Of a DNA stretch of 42,548 bases, positions 8,027 through 17,049 are shown piece after piece (the first letter of the stretch is position 1; each line of letters begins with the position of its first letter). The notes beneath the pieces were generated by a model. That model made no database searches, was not told where the DNA came from, and saw only the letters and a list, made by a program, of their open reading frames with translations. The stretch lies in the IMG/VR virus record IMGVR_UViG_2671180275_000010; one strand, given 5' to 3'. Position numbers and translations under genes: made by a program. The stretch comes from a virus. Lineage: Duplodnaviria; Heunggongvirae; Uroviricota; Caudoviricetes.

Positions 8027-8719
8027 TTAATTGTGTCGCTTAAGGGTTTGTGACTGGCTGATTAAGACCTTTCCAAAGACCATAAACCGGTGTTCATTTT
8101 CGCTGGTAATTCCCCATTCACGGTAAATCTGGTTATCAGAAATTACCAGTAGTTTGTCAGGTATCATTTGCAGTCGTTTGACATAAATTTTATCATCAAA
8201 ACCAAACACATAGATACCATCCCCATCAAACTGATTGATACTGATATCAACGAAGATGAGATCTCCTGGCTCAATGGTTGGACACATACTGTCCCCACGA
8301 ACGTTGATAACTTTAATGTGATTTGCTGGTCGTCCACCAAACATCGATACAGCATTATCAGTTCTGTATTCAATGGCATGAATCACATCAATGACATCAC
8401 CGCCCTGGATAAGGCCATTTCCCGCACTGGCACTGACATCCAGCATTTCAATACGGAATACATCCTTCACCTGCGCAACATCCTCACTAATACTGTTTTT
8501 ACATACAGTATTACTTTTGAGGTCTGAGGTAAAGAGATCAGCAATATCAACACCTAAGCTCCTGGCAATATTACTCAGGGCTTGTTCAGTGAATTGTTTC
8601 TGCTTACCTGTTTCGAGGCGCGAGATATTCGCCGCATCCACTCCTATTGCTTCAGCGAGATCGGCGATTTTCATGTTCTTCGCCTGGCGAAGTTGTCTGA
8701 CTCGATTTCCTATGTTCAT
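8027..8719 (-). CDS. cI: CI-like prophage repressor (HTH_XRE N-terminal domain + S24 LexA-like autopeptidase domain)
   Basis: 230 aa; HTH (IADLAEAIGVDAANISRLETG); Ala-Gly cleavage site (SASAGNG); S24 catalytic Ser in GDSMCPTI and Lys in VKRL; divergent from cro. Confidence 0.9.
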   Translation of the reverse strand: MNIGNRVRQLRQAKNMKIADLAEAIGVDAANISRLETGKQKQFTEQALSNIARSLGVDIADLFTSDLKSNTVCKNSISEDVAQVKDVFRIEMLDVSASAGNGLIQGGDVIDVIHAIEYRTDNAVSMFGGRPANHIKVINVRGDSMCPTIEPGDLIFVDISINQFDGDGIYVFGFDDKIYVKRLQMIPDKLLVISDNQIYREWGITSENEHRFMVFGKVLISQSQTLKRHN

Positions 8720-9627: not shown

Positions 9628-9772
9628 ATAGTTTAACGGCAAATAACCGTTTGTCGCAACAGCTGGTGGTCAGCGTCGCTGAACACCTGTTGTTACGGCA
9701 TGAATGCAGATTACCAAATCACCTGGCTGTAAGTAACCACAGAGAACTTTACCTGACTGTGGGGGGCGAGTT

Positions 9773-11292: not shown

Positions 11293-12272
11293 GCCGTTAC
11301 GCCCCCACACCGGAAGTTATGGCTATTGGTCAAATTAATATTTCCGGCAATGTTACACCTGCGACCTGGTGGAAATATATTCGACTACCCAGTGGGCGTC
11401 CGGATGCGACGGCTATCGCTCTGCTTTCAGAGATCGTTTACTGGTACCGCCCGACAGAGGTCAGGGATGAGCACACCGGAGCGTTGCTGGGATATCGCAA
11501 GCGTTTTCAGGGCGACAAACTGCAAAGAAGCTACCAGGCGTTTGCTGAGCAGTTTGGTTTCGGGAAAAGGGAAACCGCAGATGCGCTGAAGCGTCTGCGC
11601 GATGCAGGGTTTATTACTCTGGATTTACGCACGGTGGAAATGCTCGATGGGGTGAAATGCAGCAATATTTTGTTTGTCGGGATCAACCCACAGGCAATTG
11701 CGGCCATCACCACACCTTCTTCTGTTTCGCCAGAAAGTAACAGCAATAATGCAATCAGCGATACAGCTATTACGTTAAAACGGAACACCCCCCGACGTCA
11801 TAACGGAACAGGGGATACGCCGAATGTTGATACAAATACAGAGATTACTACAGAGATTACAACGGAGACTAAAAACACTATTGATGCATCCGCTGACGCG
11901 TCTGCGCCAGCGCGTTCTGCCCGACAGGAATATTCACCGGAATTTGAACAGGCCTGGCAGGAATATCCCAAACGTGCTGGTGGCAATTCAAAATCAGCAG
12001 CCTTCAAAGCCTGGAAAGCCCGTTTGAACGAGGGGGTAAACCCCGAAACCATGCTGGAAGGTGTGAAACGCTACGCGGGCTGGGTATCTGCGATGGGCAA
12101 TAGCGGCACACAATTTGTGAAACAGGCTGTCACGTTCTTTGGTCCGGATCGTCATTTCGAAGAATCCTGGGAAGTTCCTGCGGTATCTGCAGCCAGACGC
12201 GAGGACCCGTACTTCAAAGCCAGTTACGACAACGTGGACTACAGCCAGATCCCGACAGGATTCAGGGGGTGA
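11289..12272 (+). CDS. Putative phage replication initiation protein (O-like role; carries in-gene iterons)
   Basis: 327-aa ORF in the replication position; two domains joined by a Thr/Glu-rich linker (TEITTEITTET) encoded by tandem repeats, as in lambda O / ori. Confidence 0.55.
   Translation: MSRYAPTPEVMAIGQINISGNVTPATWWKYIRLPSGRPDATAIALLSEIVYWYRPTEVRDEHTGALLGYRKRFQGDKLQRSYQAFAEQFGFGKRETADALKRLRDAGFITLDLRTVEMLDGVKCSNILFVGINPQAIAAITTPSSVSPESNSNNAISDTAITLKRNTPRRHNGTGDTPNVDTNTEITTEITTETKNTIDASADASAPARSARQEYSPEFEQAWQEYPKRAGGNSKSAAFKAWKARLNEGVNPETMLEGVKRYAGWVSAMGNSGTQFVKQAVTFFGPDRHFEESWEVPAVSAARREDPYFKASYDNVDYSQIPTGFRG
11829..11873. repeat. Iteron-like tandem 12-bp direct repeats (ACAGAGATTAC(T/A) x2 plus degenerate copies); candidate replication origin inside the replication gene
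   Basis: Perfect tandem duplication ACAGAGATTACT ACAGAGATTACA followed by ACGGAGACT; coordinates derived from codon positions 184-194 of the ORF. Confidence 0.4.
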
Positions 12273-12763
12273 TCATGAGTCTGATGAACGATGTACAGAA
12301 ATTCATTGAAGCCCATCCGGGGTGTACTTCAGGTGACATTGCGGATGCTTTTGCTGGTTACTCACGACAGTGCGTTCTGCAGTCAGCAAGCAAGTTACGT
12401 CAGAGTGGCCGTGTGGCTCACTGTTGTGAAGGGAAAACACGCAGACATTTCCCACACCAGGCTGAGATATCGCAGGAGGAGAAACTGCAACCTGTTCTTG
12501 AAACCATACCTGTGCGCAATTTCTATGTCGGCACTAACGATCCCCGGGTGATTTTGTGCCTGACCCGCCAGGCGGAAGAACTGGAGTCCAGGGGCTTATA
12601 CCGTCGTGCTGCAACCGTGTGGATGGCGGCATTCCGTGAAAGCCACTCCCAGCCAGAACGAAACAATTTTCTGGCGCGTCGTGAGCGGTGCTTACGGAAA
12701 AGCAGAAAGCGCGCTGTAGCGGGTGATGAGTGGTATCTGTCAGGGAATTACGTGGGGGCTTAA
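12269..12763 (+). CDS. Hypothetical replication-module protein
   Basis: 164-aa ORF, coupled between the replication initiator and the methylase. Confidence 0.4.
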   Translation: MIMSLMNDVQKFIEAHPGCTSGDIADAFAGYSRQCVLQSASKLRQSGRVAHCCEGKTRRHFPHQAEISQEEKLQPVLETIPVRNFYVGTNDPRVILCLTRQAEELESRGLYRRAATVWMAAFRESHSQPERNNFLARRERCLRKSRKRAVAGDEWYLSGNYVGA

Positions 12764-13416
12764 TGAGTAATAAATATTGCCAGGCGCTGGTGGAACTACG
12801 GAACAAACCAGCCCATGAACTGAAGGAAGTGGGCGATCAGTGGCGCACGCCGGACAACATTTTCTGGGGAATTAACACCCTGTTTGGCCCGTTTGTTCTG
12901 GATCTGTTTACTGACGGTGATAACGCCAAATGTGCCGCGTATTACACGGCGGAAGACAACGCGCTGGCACATGACTGGTCAGAACGTCTTGCGGAGCTTA
13001 AAGGTGCTGCCTTTGGTAATCCCCCGTACAGCCGCGCCAGTCAGCATGAGGGACAATACATCACCGGCATGCGTTACATCATGAAGCATGCCAGTGCCAT
13101 GCGTGATAAAGGCGGGCGCTATGTTTTCCTGATCAAAGCGGCCACCAGCGAAGTGTGGTGGCCGGAAGATGCAGATCATATTGCTTTTATTCGCGGGCGT
13201 ATTGGTTTTGAACTGCCAGCCTGGTTTATCCCGAAAGACGAAAAGCAGGTGCCAACAGGTGCTTTCTTCGCTGGTGCTATTGCTGTTTTCGACAAGACCT
13301 GGAAGGGAGCGGCAATCAGCTACATCGGGCGCGATGAACTTGAGGCATGTGGTGAGGCATTTCTGGCGCAGGCTCGCCAGCAGGCGGAAAAACTGGTCAG
13401 GGAGATGGCGGCATGA
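12763..13416 (+). CDS. Phage Dam-family N6-adenine DNA methyltransferase (orphan)
   Basis: Start at Met12 of the track ORF (ATG overlapping the upstream stop); motifs DLFTDGDN and catalytic FGNPPYS (NPPY); no adjacent restriction endonuclease. Confidence 0.8.
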   Translation: MSNKYCQALVELRNKPAHELKEVGDQWRTPDNIFWGINTLFGPFVLDLFTDGDNAKCAAYYTAEDNALAHDWSERLAELKGAAFGNPPYSRASQHEGQYITGMRYIMKHASAMRDKGGRYVFLIKAATSEVWWPEDADHIAFIRGRIGFELPAWFIPKDEKQVPTGAFFAGAIAVFDKTWKGAAISYIGRDELEACGEAFLAQARQQAEKLVREMAA

Positions 13417-13739
13417 CGACATTAACTCAATGCCAGCAGCAGGTGCTGGATATGCTGATTTCTTATCAGAAAGAACGTGGCTTCCCGCCAACCAATCAGG
13501 AGGTGGCAACCATGCTGGGATACCGTTCGGTGAATGCAGCGGTGGAGCATCTTCGCGCACTGGAGAAAAAAGGCGTCATCACGATAAAGCGTGGCGTGGC
13601 CCGGGGGATAACGCTTCATACTGCGATGAAGGACGACGACAGCGAGGCGGTCGGGATTATCCGCGCACTGCTTGCCGGTGAGGAAAACGCAAGGCTGCGT
13701 GCAACCCACTGGTTACATGAGAGGGGCCTGAAAGTATGA
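13413..13739 (+). CDS. LexA N-terminal DNA-binding-domain-only protein (no S24 peptidase domain)
   Basis: 108 aa; aligns with E. coli LexA residues 1-70 including the recognition helix (ours RSVNAAVEHLRALEKKGVI vs LexA RSPNAAEEHLKALARKGVI); the ORF ends where the LexA cleavage/peptidase domain would begin. Confidence 0.75.
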   Translation: MTTLTQCQQQVLDMLISYQKERGFPPTNQEVATMLGYRSVNAAVEHLRALEKKGVITIKRGVARGITLHTAMKDDDSEAVGIIRALLAGEENARLRATHWLHERGLKV

Positions 13740-14131
13740 AGCTAATACTGCCTTTTCCGCCCAGCGTGAACACGTACTGGCGACACCCTAACAAAGGGGC
13801 GTTTGCTGGTAAGAGCCTGATAAGCGCGGCGGGGCGAAAATTCCAGAGCGCGGCGTGTGCAGCAATAGTTGAGCAGTTACGTCGTCTGCCGAAACCAACG
13901 TCGGCACCTGCTTCAGTGGAGATCGTGTTGTTTCCTCCGGATAACCGGATCCGCGATCTGGACAACTATAACAAGGCGCTGTTTGACGCCCTGACCCACG
14001 CGGGTGTGTGGGAAGACGACAGCCAGGTGAAAAGAATGCTGGTGGAGTGGGGACCGGTTATCCCGGAAGGGAAGGTCGAGATCACTATCAGTAAGTACGA
14101 AAAAGCGAGTTGCAAATTAGCAACTCGGTAA
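13736..14131 (+). CDS. rusA: RusA Holliday-junction resolvase
   Basis: 131 aa; LPFPPSVN and DLDNYNKALFDAL signature blocks of RusA. Confidence 0.9.
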   Translation: MKLILPFPPSVNTYWRHPNKGAFAGKSLISAAGRKFQSAACAAIVEQLRRLPKPTSAPASVEIVLFPPDNRIRDLDNYNKALFDALTHAGVWEDDSQVKRMLVEWGPVIPEGKVEITISKYEKASCKLATR

Positions 14132-14176
14132 CGGAATTGAGCAACACCCTAAATTTGGGTATTACCTCGTTAAAGA

Positions 14177-14196
14177 TACTGTATTTATGAACAGTG
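14177..14196. promoter_or_regulatory. LexA (SOS) box TACTGTATTTATGAACAGTG in the promoter region upstream of the KilA-N gene
   Basis: Matches CTGT-N8-ACAG with AT-rich spacer; sits in the 150-bp intergenic gap with -35/-10-like elements (TTGATA ... TAAGTT) immediately downstream. Confidence 0.65.
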
Positions 14197-14293
14197 TATC
14201 CTTGATAACTATTAAAAATCGCAGTAAGTTCATCCTGCATCAACGAAAAGGGAGTGCAGTCCCGCTCGTGGATAAAAATTTGTGGAGAAACCA

Positions 14294-15109
14294 ATGAATC
14301 AGTTGCTTGTAATTGATGGCGTTTCTGTGCGCCAGTACTTCGAATCTAACTACTGTCTTAACGACCTTCAGAAAGCTGCTCTTCTTGCCGCTGGTGAGAA
14401 TCGCTCCTCCCGTTCGCTGGAAGTTCACGAGTTTATGCGTCGTCCTGAAACGAAGGCTCTTGTGGAATTATTGGAAGAAGAAACTACGGGAGATTCCCGT
14501 AGTATTCCTGTCATCACCATTCAGGGGCGCAATGGTGGGACGTATGTCTGTAAAGAGCTGGTCTATGCATATGCAATGTGGATCAGCCCGGCATTCAGCT
14601 TAAAAGTGATACGTACTTTTGATGCGCTTCATAATTCATCACCAGAAGAAACCACATCCGACAAAATTAAATCCGGGGTCATTCTGCTTGAATCAGCAGC
14701 AAAGACTCTAAATCTGTCAAACTCCTCGAAACTTGGTGCATACCAGAAATTATCAAAGGTAGCTGGTCTTCCTGAACTTATGCCGATCTATGCCATTGAT
14801 GCACCTGCTGATGCGCCAGATGGTTCAAGCCGCCCTACGCTGTCGCTGAGTGCACTGCTGAAGCAGTATGGTATCCGCCTGACGGCTAATCAGGCATATC
14901 ACCAGATGGCGAAGCTGGGGATCGTTGAACAACGCGAACGATACAGCCGTACCGCGATTAACAACATCAAAAAATTCTGGTCGCTGACAGCGAAAGGCTG
15001 CATGTTCGGCAAGAACATCACCAGTCCTGCAAATCCGCGCGAGACGCAGCCGCATTTCTTCGAATCCCGATTCCCTGAGCTGTTAAAGCTGCTCGATACC
15101 GTTCACTGA
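14294..15109 (+). CDS. KilA-N domain protein (antirepressor-like)
   Basis: Start at ATG preceded by GGAGAA (track ORF starts at GTG 14282); KilA-N/APSES-like core GTYVCKELVYAYAMWISPAFSLKVIRTFDAL. Confidence 0.8.
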   Translation: MNQLLVIDGVSVRQYFESNYCLNDLQKAALLAAGENRSSRSLEVHEFMRRPETKALVELLEEETTGDSRSIPVITIQGRNGGTYVCKELVYAYAMWISPAFSLKVIRTFDALHNSSPEETTSDKIKSGVILLESAAKTLNLSNSSKLGAYQKLSKVAGLPELMPIYAIDAPADAPDGSSRPTLSLSALLKQYGIRLTANQAYHQMAKLGIVEQRERYSRTAINNIKKFWSLTAKGCMFGKNITSPANPRETQPHFFESRFPELLKLLDTVH

Positions 15110-15124
15110 TGGGAGGCGTGGAGC

Positions 15125-15640
15125 ATGAGAATTACACCACCCCATCTGCAGCCAGTTTTATCCAGGGTTAAACGTTTTGTTGAACGAATGCCGGAAGGCG
15201 CAACACTGACCCAGATATCACAGAAAGTGCAGGCGTACAGTCTACTGAATAAAAGGGATAAGGAGATACTCATTGGCATTATCCGCGACAGTGGACTTCT
15301 GGTCGTTGCGAATGATGGAAGAACTACAACGTTACATCATCCTAAATTTGGACATCAGGCAGTAAATAGTGAAATACCAGTAAAAACAGAGGAACCCGTT
15401 GTGATTAAAAAGACCGTTACTCCGGATGAATTACGCAGGCATGCTGAGGAGCTGATCAGGGCTGCGGAAGAAGCAGAGAAGAAATTTAATGATCGTGCGG
15501 AAATTAAAAAGCAACTGGATCCTCTGAAACTGGAAATCCTCCAGGCGTATGGAATGGCAAGTCGTAAATTTGATGAGTTTGTTGATGCTATGGCGGATAT
15601 GGGGAAAGCGGTACAGAAACTGAAACAGATTGTGCTGTGA
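15125..15640 (+). CDS. Hypothetical protein (N-terminal wHTH-like, C-terminal coiled coil)
   Basis: 171-aa ORF in the KilA-N to Q operon. Confidence 0.45.
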   Translation: MRITPPHLQPVLSRVKRFVERMPEGATLTQISQKVQAYSLLNKRDKEILIGIIRDSGLLVVANDGRTTTLHHPKFGHQAVNSEIPVKTEEPVVIKKTVTPDELRRHAEELIRAAEEAEKKFNDRAEIKKQLDPLKLEILQAYGMASRKFDEFVDAMADMGKAVQKLKQIVL

Positions 15641-15649
15641 GGTTCTACG

Positions 15650-16639
15650 TTGAGAGCACTACTGACCCCTGAAATTGCCCCGCGTATGGGGATCGTATTG
15701 TTCAGGCCAGGTTCAGAGCTGATGCCCCTGTTTATGCAGGGGCGTGTCCTGCTGGAGCCTGAGCCGGAGCGTTATTCATCTTTCGCCAGTGGTGCCGTTC
15801 CGGCGGCATCACAACCGCTGGCGGATGATCCTGCCGTTCGGGCCGTGTTCCGCAATGAGGCGGTGATCCGTCGTGCTGGTGGCGTGGAATGCCTTGAGAG
15901 CTGGTTACTTCGTGAAAAGGGCTGTCAGTGGCCTCATTCCGACTGGCACAGCGAGAACATGACCACAATGCGGCACGCGCCAGGCGCAATCCGTCTGTGC
16001 TGGCACTGTGACAATCTCCTCCGTGACCAGTTCACGGAACGGCTGGAATCAATGGCAACGGATAACTGTGCCCGCTGGGTGTTGTCTGTTGTGCGCCGTG
16101 ATCTTGGTTTTGATGACAGTCACGTTGTGACAATGCCGGAACTGTGCTGGTGGCTGGTTCGTAATGACCTGGCGGATGCCTTACCGGAAAGTGCAGCCCG
16201 TAAGGTACTGAGATTACCGAAGACGGTTGTGCCGTCTGTCACCCGGGAAAGTGACCTTGTGCCTTCGGTTCCCGCCACCAGTATTATCCGGGATAAAGCG
16301 AAAAAGGTGCTGGCGCTGAAAGTGGATCCGGAGTCGCCGGAGTCTTTTATGTTACGCCCAAAACGTCGCCGCTGGGTTAATGAAAAGTACACGCGCTGGG
16401 TTAAGACGCAGCCGTGCGCATGTTGTGGAAAACCTGCTGATGATCCCCACCACCTGATAGGTCACGGTCAGGGCGGAATGGGTACAAAAGCGCATGACCT
16501 CTTTGTGTTGCCTTTGTGCAGAAAGCATCACGACGAGCTGCATGCGGATACCGTGGCATTTGAAGAGAAGTATGGCTCCCAGCTGGAGCTGATATTTCGT
16601 TTTATCGATCGCGCGCTGGCGATTGGTGTGCTGTCCTGA
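15650..16639 (+). CDS. DUF968-domain protein (YdfU-like) with C-terminal Cys/His-rich HNH-like cluster
   Basis: 329 aa; C-terminal CACCGKPADDPHHLIGHGQGGMGTKAHDLFVLPLCRKHHDELH; alternative start possible at Met13. Confidence 0.65.
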   Translation: MRALLTPEIAPRMGIVLFRPGSELMPLFMQGRVLLEPEPERYSSFASGAVPAASQPLADDPAVRAVFRNEAVIRRAGGVECLESWLLREKGCQWPHSDWHSENMTTMRHAPGAIRLCWHCDNLLRDQFTERLESMATDNCARWVLSVVRRDLGFDDSHVVTMPELCWWLVRNDLADALPESAARKVLRLPKTVVPSVTRESDLVPSVPATSIIRDKAKKVLALKVDPESPESFMLRPKRRRWVNEKYTRWVKTQPCACCGKPADDPHHLIGHGQGGMGTKAHDLFVLPLCRKHHDELHADTVAFEEKYGSQLELIFRFIDRALAIGVLS

Positions 16640-16656
16640 TTTTGTGGAGAAAGTTG

Positions 16657-17049
16657 ATGCGTGATATTCAGATGGTTCTCGAACGCTGGGGGGCATGGGC
16701 GGCAAGTGGTAACGCCGGGGTGGACTATTCTCCGATAGCTGCTGGATTTAAAGGCCTTTTACCATCCACCGCTAAACCTCGCCCGGCCTGCAGCGATGAT
16801 GACGGCCTTATCATCGAAAACTGCCTTACGCGCCTGAAGAAGAAAAAACCGGACGAGTATTCGCTGCTGGTAGCTCATTATCTGCTGCGCATATCAAAAA
16901 GGCAGATTGCCAGAACAAGAAAGAAGAGCGAAAAGGCAATACGAATTGAGATGCAGATTGCTGAAGGATTTATTGACGGATGTCTGTCGATGCTGGGTGT
17001 AAGGCTGGAGATGGACGACTGGCTGCCCAAAAAAGTAAAAAATGATTAG
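16657..17049 (+). CDS. Q: Late-gene antiterminator Q (QuuD/phage-82-type)
   Basis: MRDIQMVLERWGAWAA... N-terminus matches E. coli DLP12 QuuD as I recall it; located directly upstream of the late-regulatory region; track ORF starts at alternative codon 16642. Confidence 0.8.
   Translation: MRDIQMVLERWGAWAASGNAGVDYSPIAAGFKGLLPSTAKPRPACSDDDGLIIENCLTRLKKKKPDEYSLLVAHYLLRISKRQIARTRKKSEKAIRIEMQIAEGFIDGCLSMLGVRLEMDDWLPKKVKND

Follow-up and report, generated by a model that had tools for sequence, protein, structure and literature searches.

Background

LexA dimerises through its C-terminal domain. Non-inducible (Ind-) forms of LexA (G85D, S119A; PDB 1jhf, 1jhh) are uncleavable and dominantly keep the SOS regulon off, and engineered fusions of LexA(1-87) to a zipper or another foreign dimeriser, known as bacterial two-hybrid repressors, restore repression of SOS operators and are insensitive to RecA. 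The gene analysed here lies at positions 13413-13739 of IMG/VR virus record IMGVR_UViG_2671180275_000010, a Caudoviricetes sequence of 42,548 nucleotides (the window), and encodes a protein of 108 amino acids (aa) that consists of a LexA DNA-binding domain (DBD), a flexible linker and a two-helix hairpin, without the S24 autocleavage domain. Like the engineered fusions it joins a DBD, a linker and a small presumed dimeriser, the differences being that the phage protein is natural and that its tail is a putative dimeriser only. It is quite possible, if short of probable, that the product is a RecA-insensitive dimeric repressor of SOS-type operators that re-silences LexA-controlled promoters during lytic growth.

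Among characterised proteins the nearest analogue is gp6 of GIL01, a tectivirus of Bacillus thuringiensis. This truncated LexA homologue binds a palindrome of its own, which overlaps a -35 element, and activates a late promoter (Fornelos et al. 2018, PMC6182141). Both are phage-encoded LexA winged helix-turn-helix (wHTH) proteins that lack the S24 domain, and the biology of the gp6 phage is tied to host LexA. Unlike the 108-aa protein, gp6 has 66 aa and no C-terminal extension. No BLASTP alignment was obtained between the two at E<=100, which together with the short, tail-less form of gp6 argues for independent truncations, that of gp6 from a Firmicutes-type LexA. The recognition helix of the enterobacterial family is also much closer to that of host LexA than the helix of gp6. 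Compared with E. coli LexA (TIGR00498), the phage protein shares the DNA-binding fold, with 51% identity over residues 1-68 and four of the five DNA contacts, and differs in having no S24 dimerisation and protease domain, in the replacement of Arg28 and Glu44, and in carrying a private hairpin instead. As the family is abundant and already carries an annotation, its detection is no novelty; in a survey of Stx phages it appears as 'pham 237', with pfam01726 and in 15 phages, and without functional work (PMC8136144). Compared with gp6, the new features are the independent origin, the additional hairpin and a helix that remains similar to that of host LexA.

The DNA-binding domain and its DNA-reading surface

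The open reading frame (ORF) starts with ATG, has a Shine-Dalgarno GGAG about 8 nt upstream, and is a real gene, under selection and already annotated. Its product matched the Pfam family LexA_DNA_bind (PF01726) over the entire profile (positions 1-65 of 65) with E=2.9e-19 and 69 bits against a cut-off of 23.7, and the best solved-structure match, obtained with phmmer against PDB, was the N-terminal domain of E. coli LexA (1lea, E=6e-16, residues 2-70). Residues 1-108 matched positions 1-106 of 106 of PHROG 362 (E=1.2e-59), a profile that bears the annotation name 'transcriptional repressor'. An AlphaFold2 (AF2) monomer model of the whole protein was built on 12 family members, with a mean predicted local distance difference test score (pLDDT) of 79 and a predicted TM score (pTM) of 0.53. 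The modelled wHTH comprises helices 6-22, 28-35 and 40-52, the last being the recognition helix, and strands 56-58 and 66-68. Placed on DNA-bound LexA (3jso) with Foldseek, the model gave a root-mean-square deviation of 1.0 A over 67 columns at 51% identity. The resemblance to the LexA domain is far beyond chance, and the alignment with LexA residues 1-70 that had been noticed in the original prediction, made from the letters of the window without database searches, is borne out by the profile and by both structures.

The recognition helix reads SVNAAVEHLR in the phage protein and SPNAAEEHLK in LexA, in which Ser39, Asn41, Ala42, Glu44 and Glu45 contact the DNA (PMC3091678, PMC13416735). The phage protein retains four of these five residues (Ser39, Asn41, Ala42 and Glu45), which do not vary in the E. 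coli group of sequences, and has Val in place of Glu44; outside the helix, Arg28 is replaced by Asn. Positions 28 and 44 were surveyed in 106 non-redundant LexA-DBD representatives aligned to the query. Both Arg28 and Glu44 were present in 75 of them, Arg28 alone in 4 and neither in 27, and Glu44 never occurred without Arg28. In this alignment the two residues behave as a coupled, covarying pair that marks canonical LexA domains, and the pattern suggests that they form a structural or functional pair. Sequences without the pair carry other, often hydrophobic, residues at both positions (Y/F, L/L, I/F).

Absence of the protease domain

Pfam gave no S24 domain in the 108-aa protein, and none among 171 close homologues collected with a word-index search. 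Intact homologues have about 102-108 aa, and the largest clusters contain 2527, 782 and 374 member sequences. TIGR00498, the LexA repressor equivalog, was matched with 70.4 bits, below its cut-off of 110.95, and only over profile positions 1-91 of 203. The protein ends at residue 108, with rusA next, and has neither the Ser119/Lys156 dyad of LexA nor its Ala84-Gly85 cleavage site. The HMMER alignment extends to a stretch that reads 'LLAGE' in the phage protein and 'VAAGE' in the cleavage region of LexA. This stretch was considered as a site of cleavage, also in trans, and was rejected, because it is not conserved (relatives have LLANEE, LLAKEE and LLVGEE) and is predicted to be helical. Without an S24 domain the protein cannot cleave itself, which, with an Ala-Gly look-alike that is not conserved, agrees with the predicted immunity to RecA-stimulated cleavage.

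Polymorphism was evaluated as the ratio of nonsynonymous to synonymous differences per site (pN/pS) in 57 distinct IMG/VR alleles. The ratio was 0.034 for codons 1-68, 0.245 for codons 69-108 and 0.11 overall, and the DBD is under strong purifying selection. These values bear on the explanation that the gene is a decaying, functionless remnant of a captured lexA, or an artefact of assembly or a frameshift. Such an explanation could draw on rare fused or truncated entries (Dam-LexA fusions and fragments of 60-90 aa), but these have few members each, and it is opposed by the low pN/pS overall and in the DBD, by the presence of the gene at 95-100% identity in 2233 of 5426 E. coli genomes, by clusters of hundreds to thousands of sequences, by a tail that is kept in relatives of 40-50% identity, and by the absence of an S24 remnant downstream, where rusA starts at the stop codon. 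Since intact homologues of the same length are free of S24 and rusA abuts the stop codon, a frameshifted or fragmented lexA was rejected, and the remnant explanation is effectively refuted by conservation and scarcely credible. The original prediction had named a fragment of a longer LexA-like gene, by frameshift or misassembly, as what would overturn it; this was checked, and the stand-alone DBD without autocleavage domain proved to be genuine and selected.

The C-terminal linker and hairpin

Residues 69-108 are a conserved extension beyond the LexA hinge point, made up of a floppy linker and a two-helix hairpin. In the AF2 model, pLDDT is below 50 for linker residues 71-76 and about 83 for helices 74-87 and 93-102, and the pTM of 0.53 suggests a hairpin that is linked to the wHTH without packing against it. 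A HMMER search of 1.84 billion representatives retrieved relatives of 105-165 aa, 40-52% identical, that have both the wHTH and the hairpin, with a tail consensus of roughly EA..(I/L)(I/L)RALL....AR..A..(W/F/Y)L...G. The Pfam search of the protein gave nothing for the hairpin beyond the DNA-binding domain, and a profile of the tail compared with PDB matched only spurious repeats in designed pentatricopeptide repeat (PPR) proteins, with no meaningful sequence relative. The original prediction had the protein stop where the hinge and the S24 domain would start; the S24 domain is indeed absent, and the conserved extension had been overlooked. Three relatives (P0132, P0155 and P0161; 141-164 aa) contain two LexA_DNA_bind domains in tandem, seen as two Pfam stretches.

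The hairpin is probably a dimerisation or partner-binding module, and we infer that it mediates dimerisation, in place of the C-terminal domain of LexA. It is unlikely that the 108-aa protein pairs with host LexA, as it lacks the very domain through which LexA dimerises.

Distribution and operon setting

The gene occurs at 95-100% identity in 2233 of 5426 complete E. coli genomes (41%), where it is annotated as 'LexA family transcriptional regulator', and also in SfV (orf42), SfII, SfIV, mEp460, phage cdtI and Stx2a/Stx2c phages. A contig search of a one-genome-per-species collection returned 5 loci. A matched set of 80 IMG/VR loci was gathered around the DUF968 gene; 64 of these carry the LexA-DBD gene, and in five others (L049, L070, L073, L074 and L075) dam is joined directly to rusA through the same GGCATGA junction, with the gene precisely absent. 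In the window, the stop codon of dam overlaps the ATG of the LexA-DBD gene, and the TGA of the latter overlaps the ATG of rusA, in both cases as ATGA. Each nin gene behaves as a separate cassette bounded by ATGA. The LexA-DBD gene is gained or lost precisely between such junctions without a linked cis site, and this movement as a bare cassette suggests that its target is available in every host. In lambdoid prophages the gene forms an optional cassette of the nin region, within the delayed-early rightward operon, and its place in that operon points to transcription during lytic growth.

The most constant neighbour is rusA, though it is not universal; dam is missing in some carriers, in which PerC directly precedes the LexA-DBD gene. 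The neighbourhood raises the possibility that the protein does not regulate transcription but is a DNA-binding accessory of nin-region recombination or replication, which might, for example, assist or target RusA, NinG or the DUF968 HNH nuclease. Translational coupling to rusA in the window, SfV, mEp390 and Citrobacter, a Proteus phage homologue that overlaps ninG (another junction nuclease), and homologues that adjoin or lie close to DUF968/HNH genes in phages of Klebsiella and Edwardsiella would fit such a role. We nevertheless consider it improbable: rusA follows dam without the LexA-DBD gene in 5 of the 80 IMG/VR loci, a homologue can stand away from any resolvase (for example in Hafnia phage yong2), nin gene order is conserved by position so that adjacency is weak evidence, and the tail has no detectable similarity to known partner-binding modules.

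Two homologues in other phages stand in a recurring SOS context. In Klebsiella phage Kp4865-4 (L009 10378-12993), a textbook LexA-repressed promoter (TTGAAC-17-TATACT) overlaps TACTGTTTATTTATACAGTG and is followed by dinI, a 96-aa hypothetical ORF, the LexA-DBD homologue, a 67-aa ORF, DUF968 and Q; the helix of this homologue reads SSSNAVLLHL, with Glu44 and Glu45 lost. In Edwardsiella phage EPP-1 (L011 7231-8210), an SOS box overlaps a TACAAT -10 element and is followed by rha and then by lexA_2, which encodes a tail-less LexA DBD of 71 aa with canonical Arg28 and Glu44 (RSPNAAEDHLKAL). Like the gene in the window, EPP-1 lexA_2 is a nin-region gene for a LexA DBD only, upstream of DUF968 and Q. 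It differs in its canonical Arg28/Glu44 pair, in Asp at position 45, in the absence of a tail and in lying directly behind an SOS box in the rha operon, features that make it more like a pure N-terminal fragment of LexA than the 108-aa protein is. Several representatives of 69-84 aa resemble this tail-less DBD.

SOS boxes in the window and in carrier phages

Exact matches to CTGT-N8-ACAG number three in the window against 0.48 expected, and single-substitution variants are absent there or at chance level. Candidate boxes were scored with a rough heterology index built from E. coli boxes; by this index only two strong boxes were found in 42.5 kb, at 14177-14196 (index 5.7) and 8491-8510 (index 3.0). 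The former value falls within the range of the functional E. coli boxes used for the matrix. The third exact match, GGCTGTAAGTAACCACAGAG at 9727-9742 in a Rha-family gene, has poor flanks and an index above 11, and is probably a chance occurrence.

The canonical box announced in the original prediction about 440 bp downstream, before the KilA-N operon, is present; its core starts 440 bp past the stop codon of the LexA-DBD gene. Its further suggestion that the protein regulates the downstream operon through this box was not upheld as a conserved function. Of the 5426 E. coli genomes, 185 have the 171-bp rusA/kilA-N intergenic segment with the box, whereas 2233 have the LexA-DBD gene. The window and SfV are homologous up to the end of rusA, and the rusA/kilA-N gap of SfV has 19 bp and no box; mEp390 has no kilA-N; and locus L074 has the box and KilA-N and lacks the LexA-DBD gene. 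The box was therefore rejected as a conserved, co-evolved operator. It belongs to an independent KilA-N cassette and remains a candidate target of the 108-aa protein. A sigma-70 promoter scan of 12000-14400 gave nothing above threshold; visual inspection showed several weak promoters that overlap the box or lie beside it, none of them convincing. An SOS-derepressed promoter at this place could in principle make transcription of an antirepressor-like gene, and even that of Q, independent of cI, and analogous SOS-box units lie upstream of DUF968 and Q before rha in EPP-1 and before dinI in Kp4865-4. No terminator was seen in the scan of 12000-14400. A perfect 8-bp hairpin, CGAGTTGC-AAATTA-GCAACTCG, is located at 14105-14128, at the 3' end of rusA; no T-run comes after it on the plus strand, and on the minus strand it is followed by CTTTTTCG.

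The box at 8491-8510 lies within the gene for a self-cleaving repressor of the cI type and, in the rough matrix, scores better than most genuine E. coli boxes. Equivalents were located at L002 7103-7122, L004 1865-1884 and L015 9210-9229, and the position is kept in Shigella, Citrobacter and a 93%-identical E. coli allele, with adjacent linker codons that vary. The cI allele is present in 1040 of 5426 E. coli genomes, and the IMG/VR loci that have it carry the box in 22 of 22 cases and the LexA-DBD gene also in 22 of 22. No convincing internal promoter was seen at this box, which may act as a roadblock or as an internal or antisense promoter, and which is another candidate target of the 108-aa protein. 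The e14 gene ymfK was considered as a relative of the box-bearing cI and rejected, since the two proteins differ and ymfK contains no box.

The boxes of carrier phages, that at 14177-14196 included, are most simply taken as operators of host LexA. They precede typical targets of host LexA, namely dinI (mEp390, Kp4865-4), a phage recA (yong2) and a DNA methyltransferase gene of the late region (SfV and 26 of the 64 IMG/VR carriers), and are also found before KilA-N and inside one cI allele. The methyltransferase box, TACTGTAAAAATAAACAGTG, is situated right at the beginning of the gene (orf48 in SfV), which lies downstream of Q, and suggests that this methyltransferase is a LexA-controlled moron. 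It was found in SfV (L007, 34170-34189), at L015 1304, in the 26 carriers and in the non-carrier L094. A palindrome census with 5+5 and 6+6 arms and spacers of 0-12 was made in nine diverse carrier loci; ACTGT-N8-ACAGT ranked first, in seven of the nine, and the census gave no alternative palindrome that could serve as a private operator.

Proposed role

The idea of an uncleavable LexA stand-in is plausible. In the 108-aa protein the private hairpin, joined by a flexible linker to a wHTH of gamma-proteobacterial LexA type, would replace the C-terminal domain of LexA as the dimeriser, and the dimer would occupy palindromic operators of SOS-box geometry. Engineered LexA(1-87) fusions repress SOS operators, and by analogy the wHTH-linker-dimeriser architecture should be sufficient in principle. 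Having neither S24 domain nor conserved Ala-Gly site, the protein is, on its sequence, indifferent to activated RecA; as an uncleavable LexA surrogate during phage development it would re-silence LexA-controlled promoters while host LexA is destroyed. It would act on the SOS genes of the host, on SOS-controlled genes carried by rival elements and on SOS-box units of the phage, such as the KilA-N promoter. In favour of this model are the 51% identity of the DBD to LexA and its close fit to the DNA-bound form, the four kept contacts, the low pN/pS of the wHTH, the conserved linker and hairpin, a cassette that moves without a cis site, the census led by ACTGT-N8-ACAGT with no enriched variant box in the window, and the SOS context of the homologues in Kp4865-4 and EPP-1. 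A more elaborate version, which we hold to be doubtful as a whole, has a RecA-proof surrogate produced from the delayed-early operon and dimerising through its own hairpin re-close SOS operators after LexA cleavage, so that the host SOS programme (sulA, umuDC, SOS-induced toxins) would be turned off, SOS-inducible rival prophages and colicins would stay silent, and the phage's own SOS-box units (KilA-N promoter, cI-internal box) would be pulsed.

Several observations weigh against a repressor of SOS operators. The Arg28/Glu44 pair is replaced in the phage protein and in all 9 tail-bearing distant representatives, and for this reason an SOS-box specificity identical to that of LexA is not to be assumed; the original prediction, which had the protein bind CTGT-N8-ACAG, went too far on this point. 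Residues 42-45 vary across the tail family (AAVE, AATD, AAFE, AAAE, AVLL, TVFI, TIAG), which is unlike a pure mimic locked on one invariant host operator. The near-identical recognition helix that had been reported thus describes the E. coli group, with its four kept contacts, and not the whole family. Carriers and non-carriers show no significant difference in strong SOS boxes, which were found in 42 of 64 and 5 of 11 loci, respectively (0.047 vs 0.034 per kb), and no strong box lies within 10 kb in 22 of the 64 carriers. Finally, a literature search found no functional or experimental study of this LexA-DBD family.

The family-wide loss of the Arg28/Glu44 pair, the variable residues 42-45, and a gene presence and position uncorrelated with SOS boxes would also suit a phage transcription factor of diverged specificity that activates or represses non-SOS genes through an operator of its own, in the phage or the host. 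The precedent is gp6, the only characterised truncated phage LexA homologue, with its distinct palindrome and its activation of a late promoter (PMC6182141). We judge this reading to be somewhat unlikely for the protein in the window, given that the census yields only the SOS box and the window holds no variant boxes, that the gene overlaps both neighbours and leaves no intergenic room for an autoregulatory site, that the cassette moves without a linked cis element, and that the E. coli helix departs from that of LexA at one contact residue only.

Features of the locus

The features at and around the LexA-DBD gene are listed in Table 1. The unit that begins with the KilA-N gene (14294-17049) continues with a 171-aa hypothetical protein, DUF968/HNH and the Q antiterminator.

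Table 1. Positions of the LexA-DBD gene, its parts, adjacent genes and strong SOS boxes in the window
Feature	Position	Strand	Basis and remarks
SOS box TACTGTTTTTACATACAGTA, second and stronger	8491..8510		inside cI-like repressor gene 8027..8719 (-), linker codons ~70-76
Dam N6-adenine methyltransferase (phage), upstream cassette	12730..13416	+	profile match
LexA-DBD-only protein gene	13413..13739	+	PHROG 362; NCBI 'LexA family transcriptional regulator', WP_000210143.1 in 100%-identical E. coli locus
Winged helix-turn-helix, codons 1-68	13413..13616	+	AF2 model, Foldseek to 3jso, pN/pS 0.034
Flexible linker, codons 69-76	13617..13640	+	low-confidence AF2; sequence and length vary among relatives
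Two-helix hairpin, codons 77-108 (helices 74-87, 93-102)	13641..13736	+	AF2, relatives; family-specific
RusA Holliday-junction resolvase, downstream cassette	13736..14131	+	profile match
SOS box TACTGTATTTATGAACAGTG	14177-14196		in 162-bp rusA/kilA-N intergenic region (14132-14293); core CTGT-N8-ACAG 14179-14194
KilA-N domain gene	14294..15109	+	NCBI start ATG 14294; ORF list start GTG 14282; first gene after SOS box

Significance

Carriers of the gene include Shigella serotype-converting phages and Stx2a/Stx2c phages, in which SOS induction drives toxin release. The natural phages with a direct dam-rusA junction, which are without the gene, are a ready isogenic control. If the 108-aa protein acts through a private operator, it would be an uncharacterised regulator in medically important phages. 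If it re-represses SOS operators, a common prophage gene would shape the duration and strength of the SOS response after induction, and which of the co-resident SOS elements fire, with a possible effect on mutagenesis or toxin expression after antibiotic stress.

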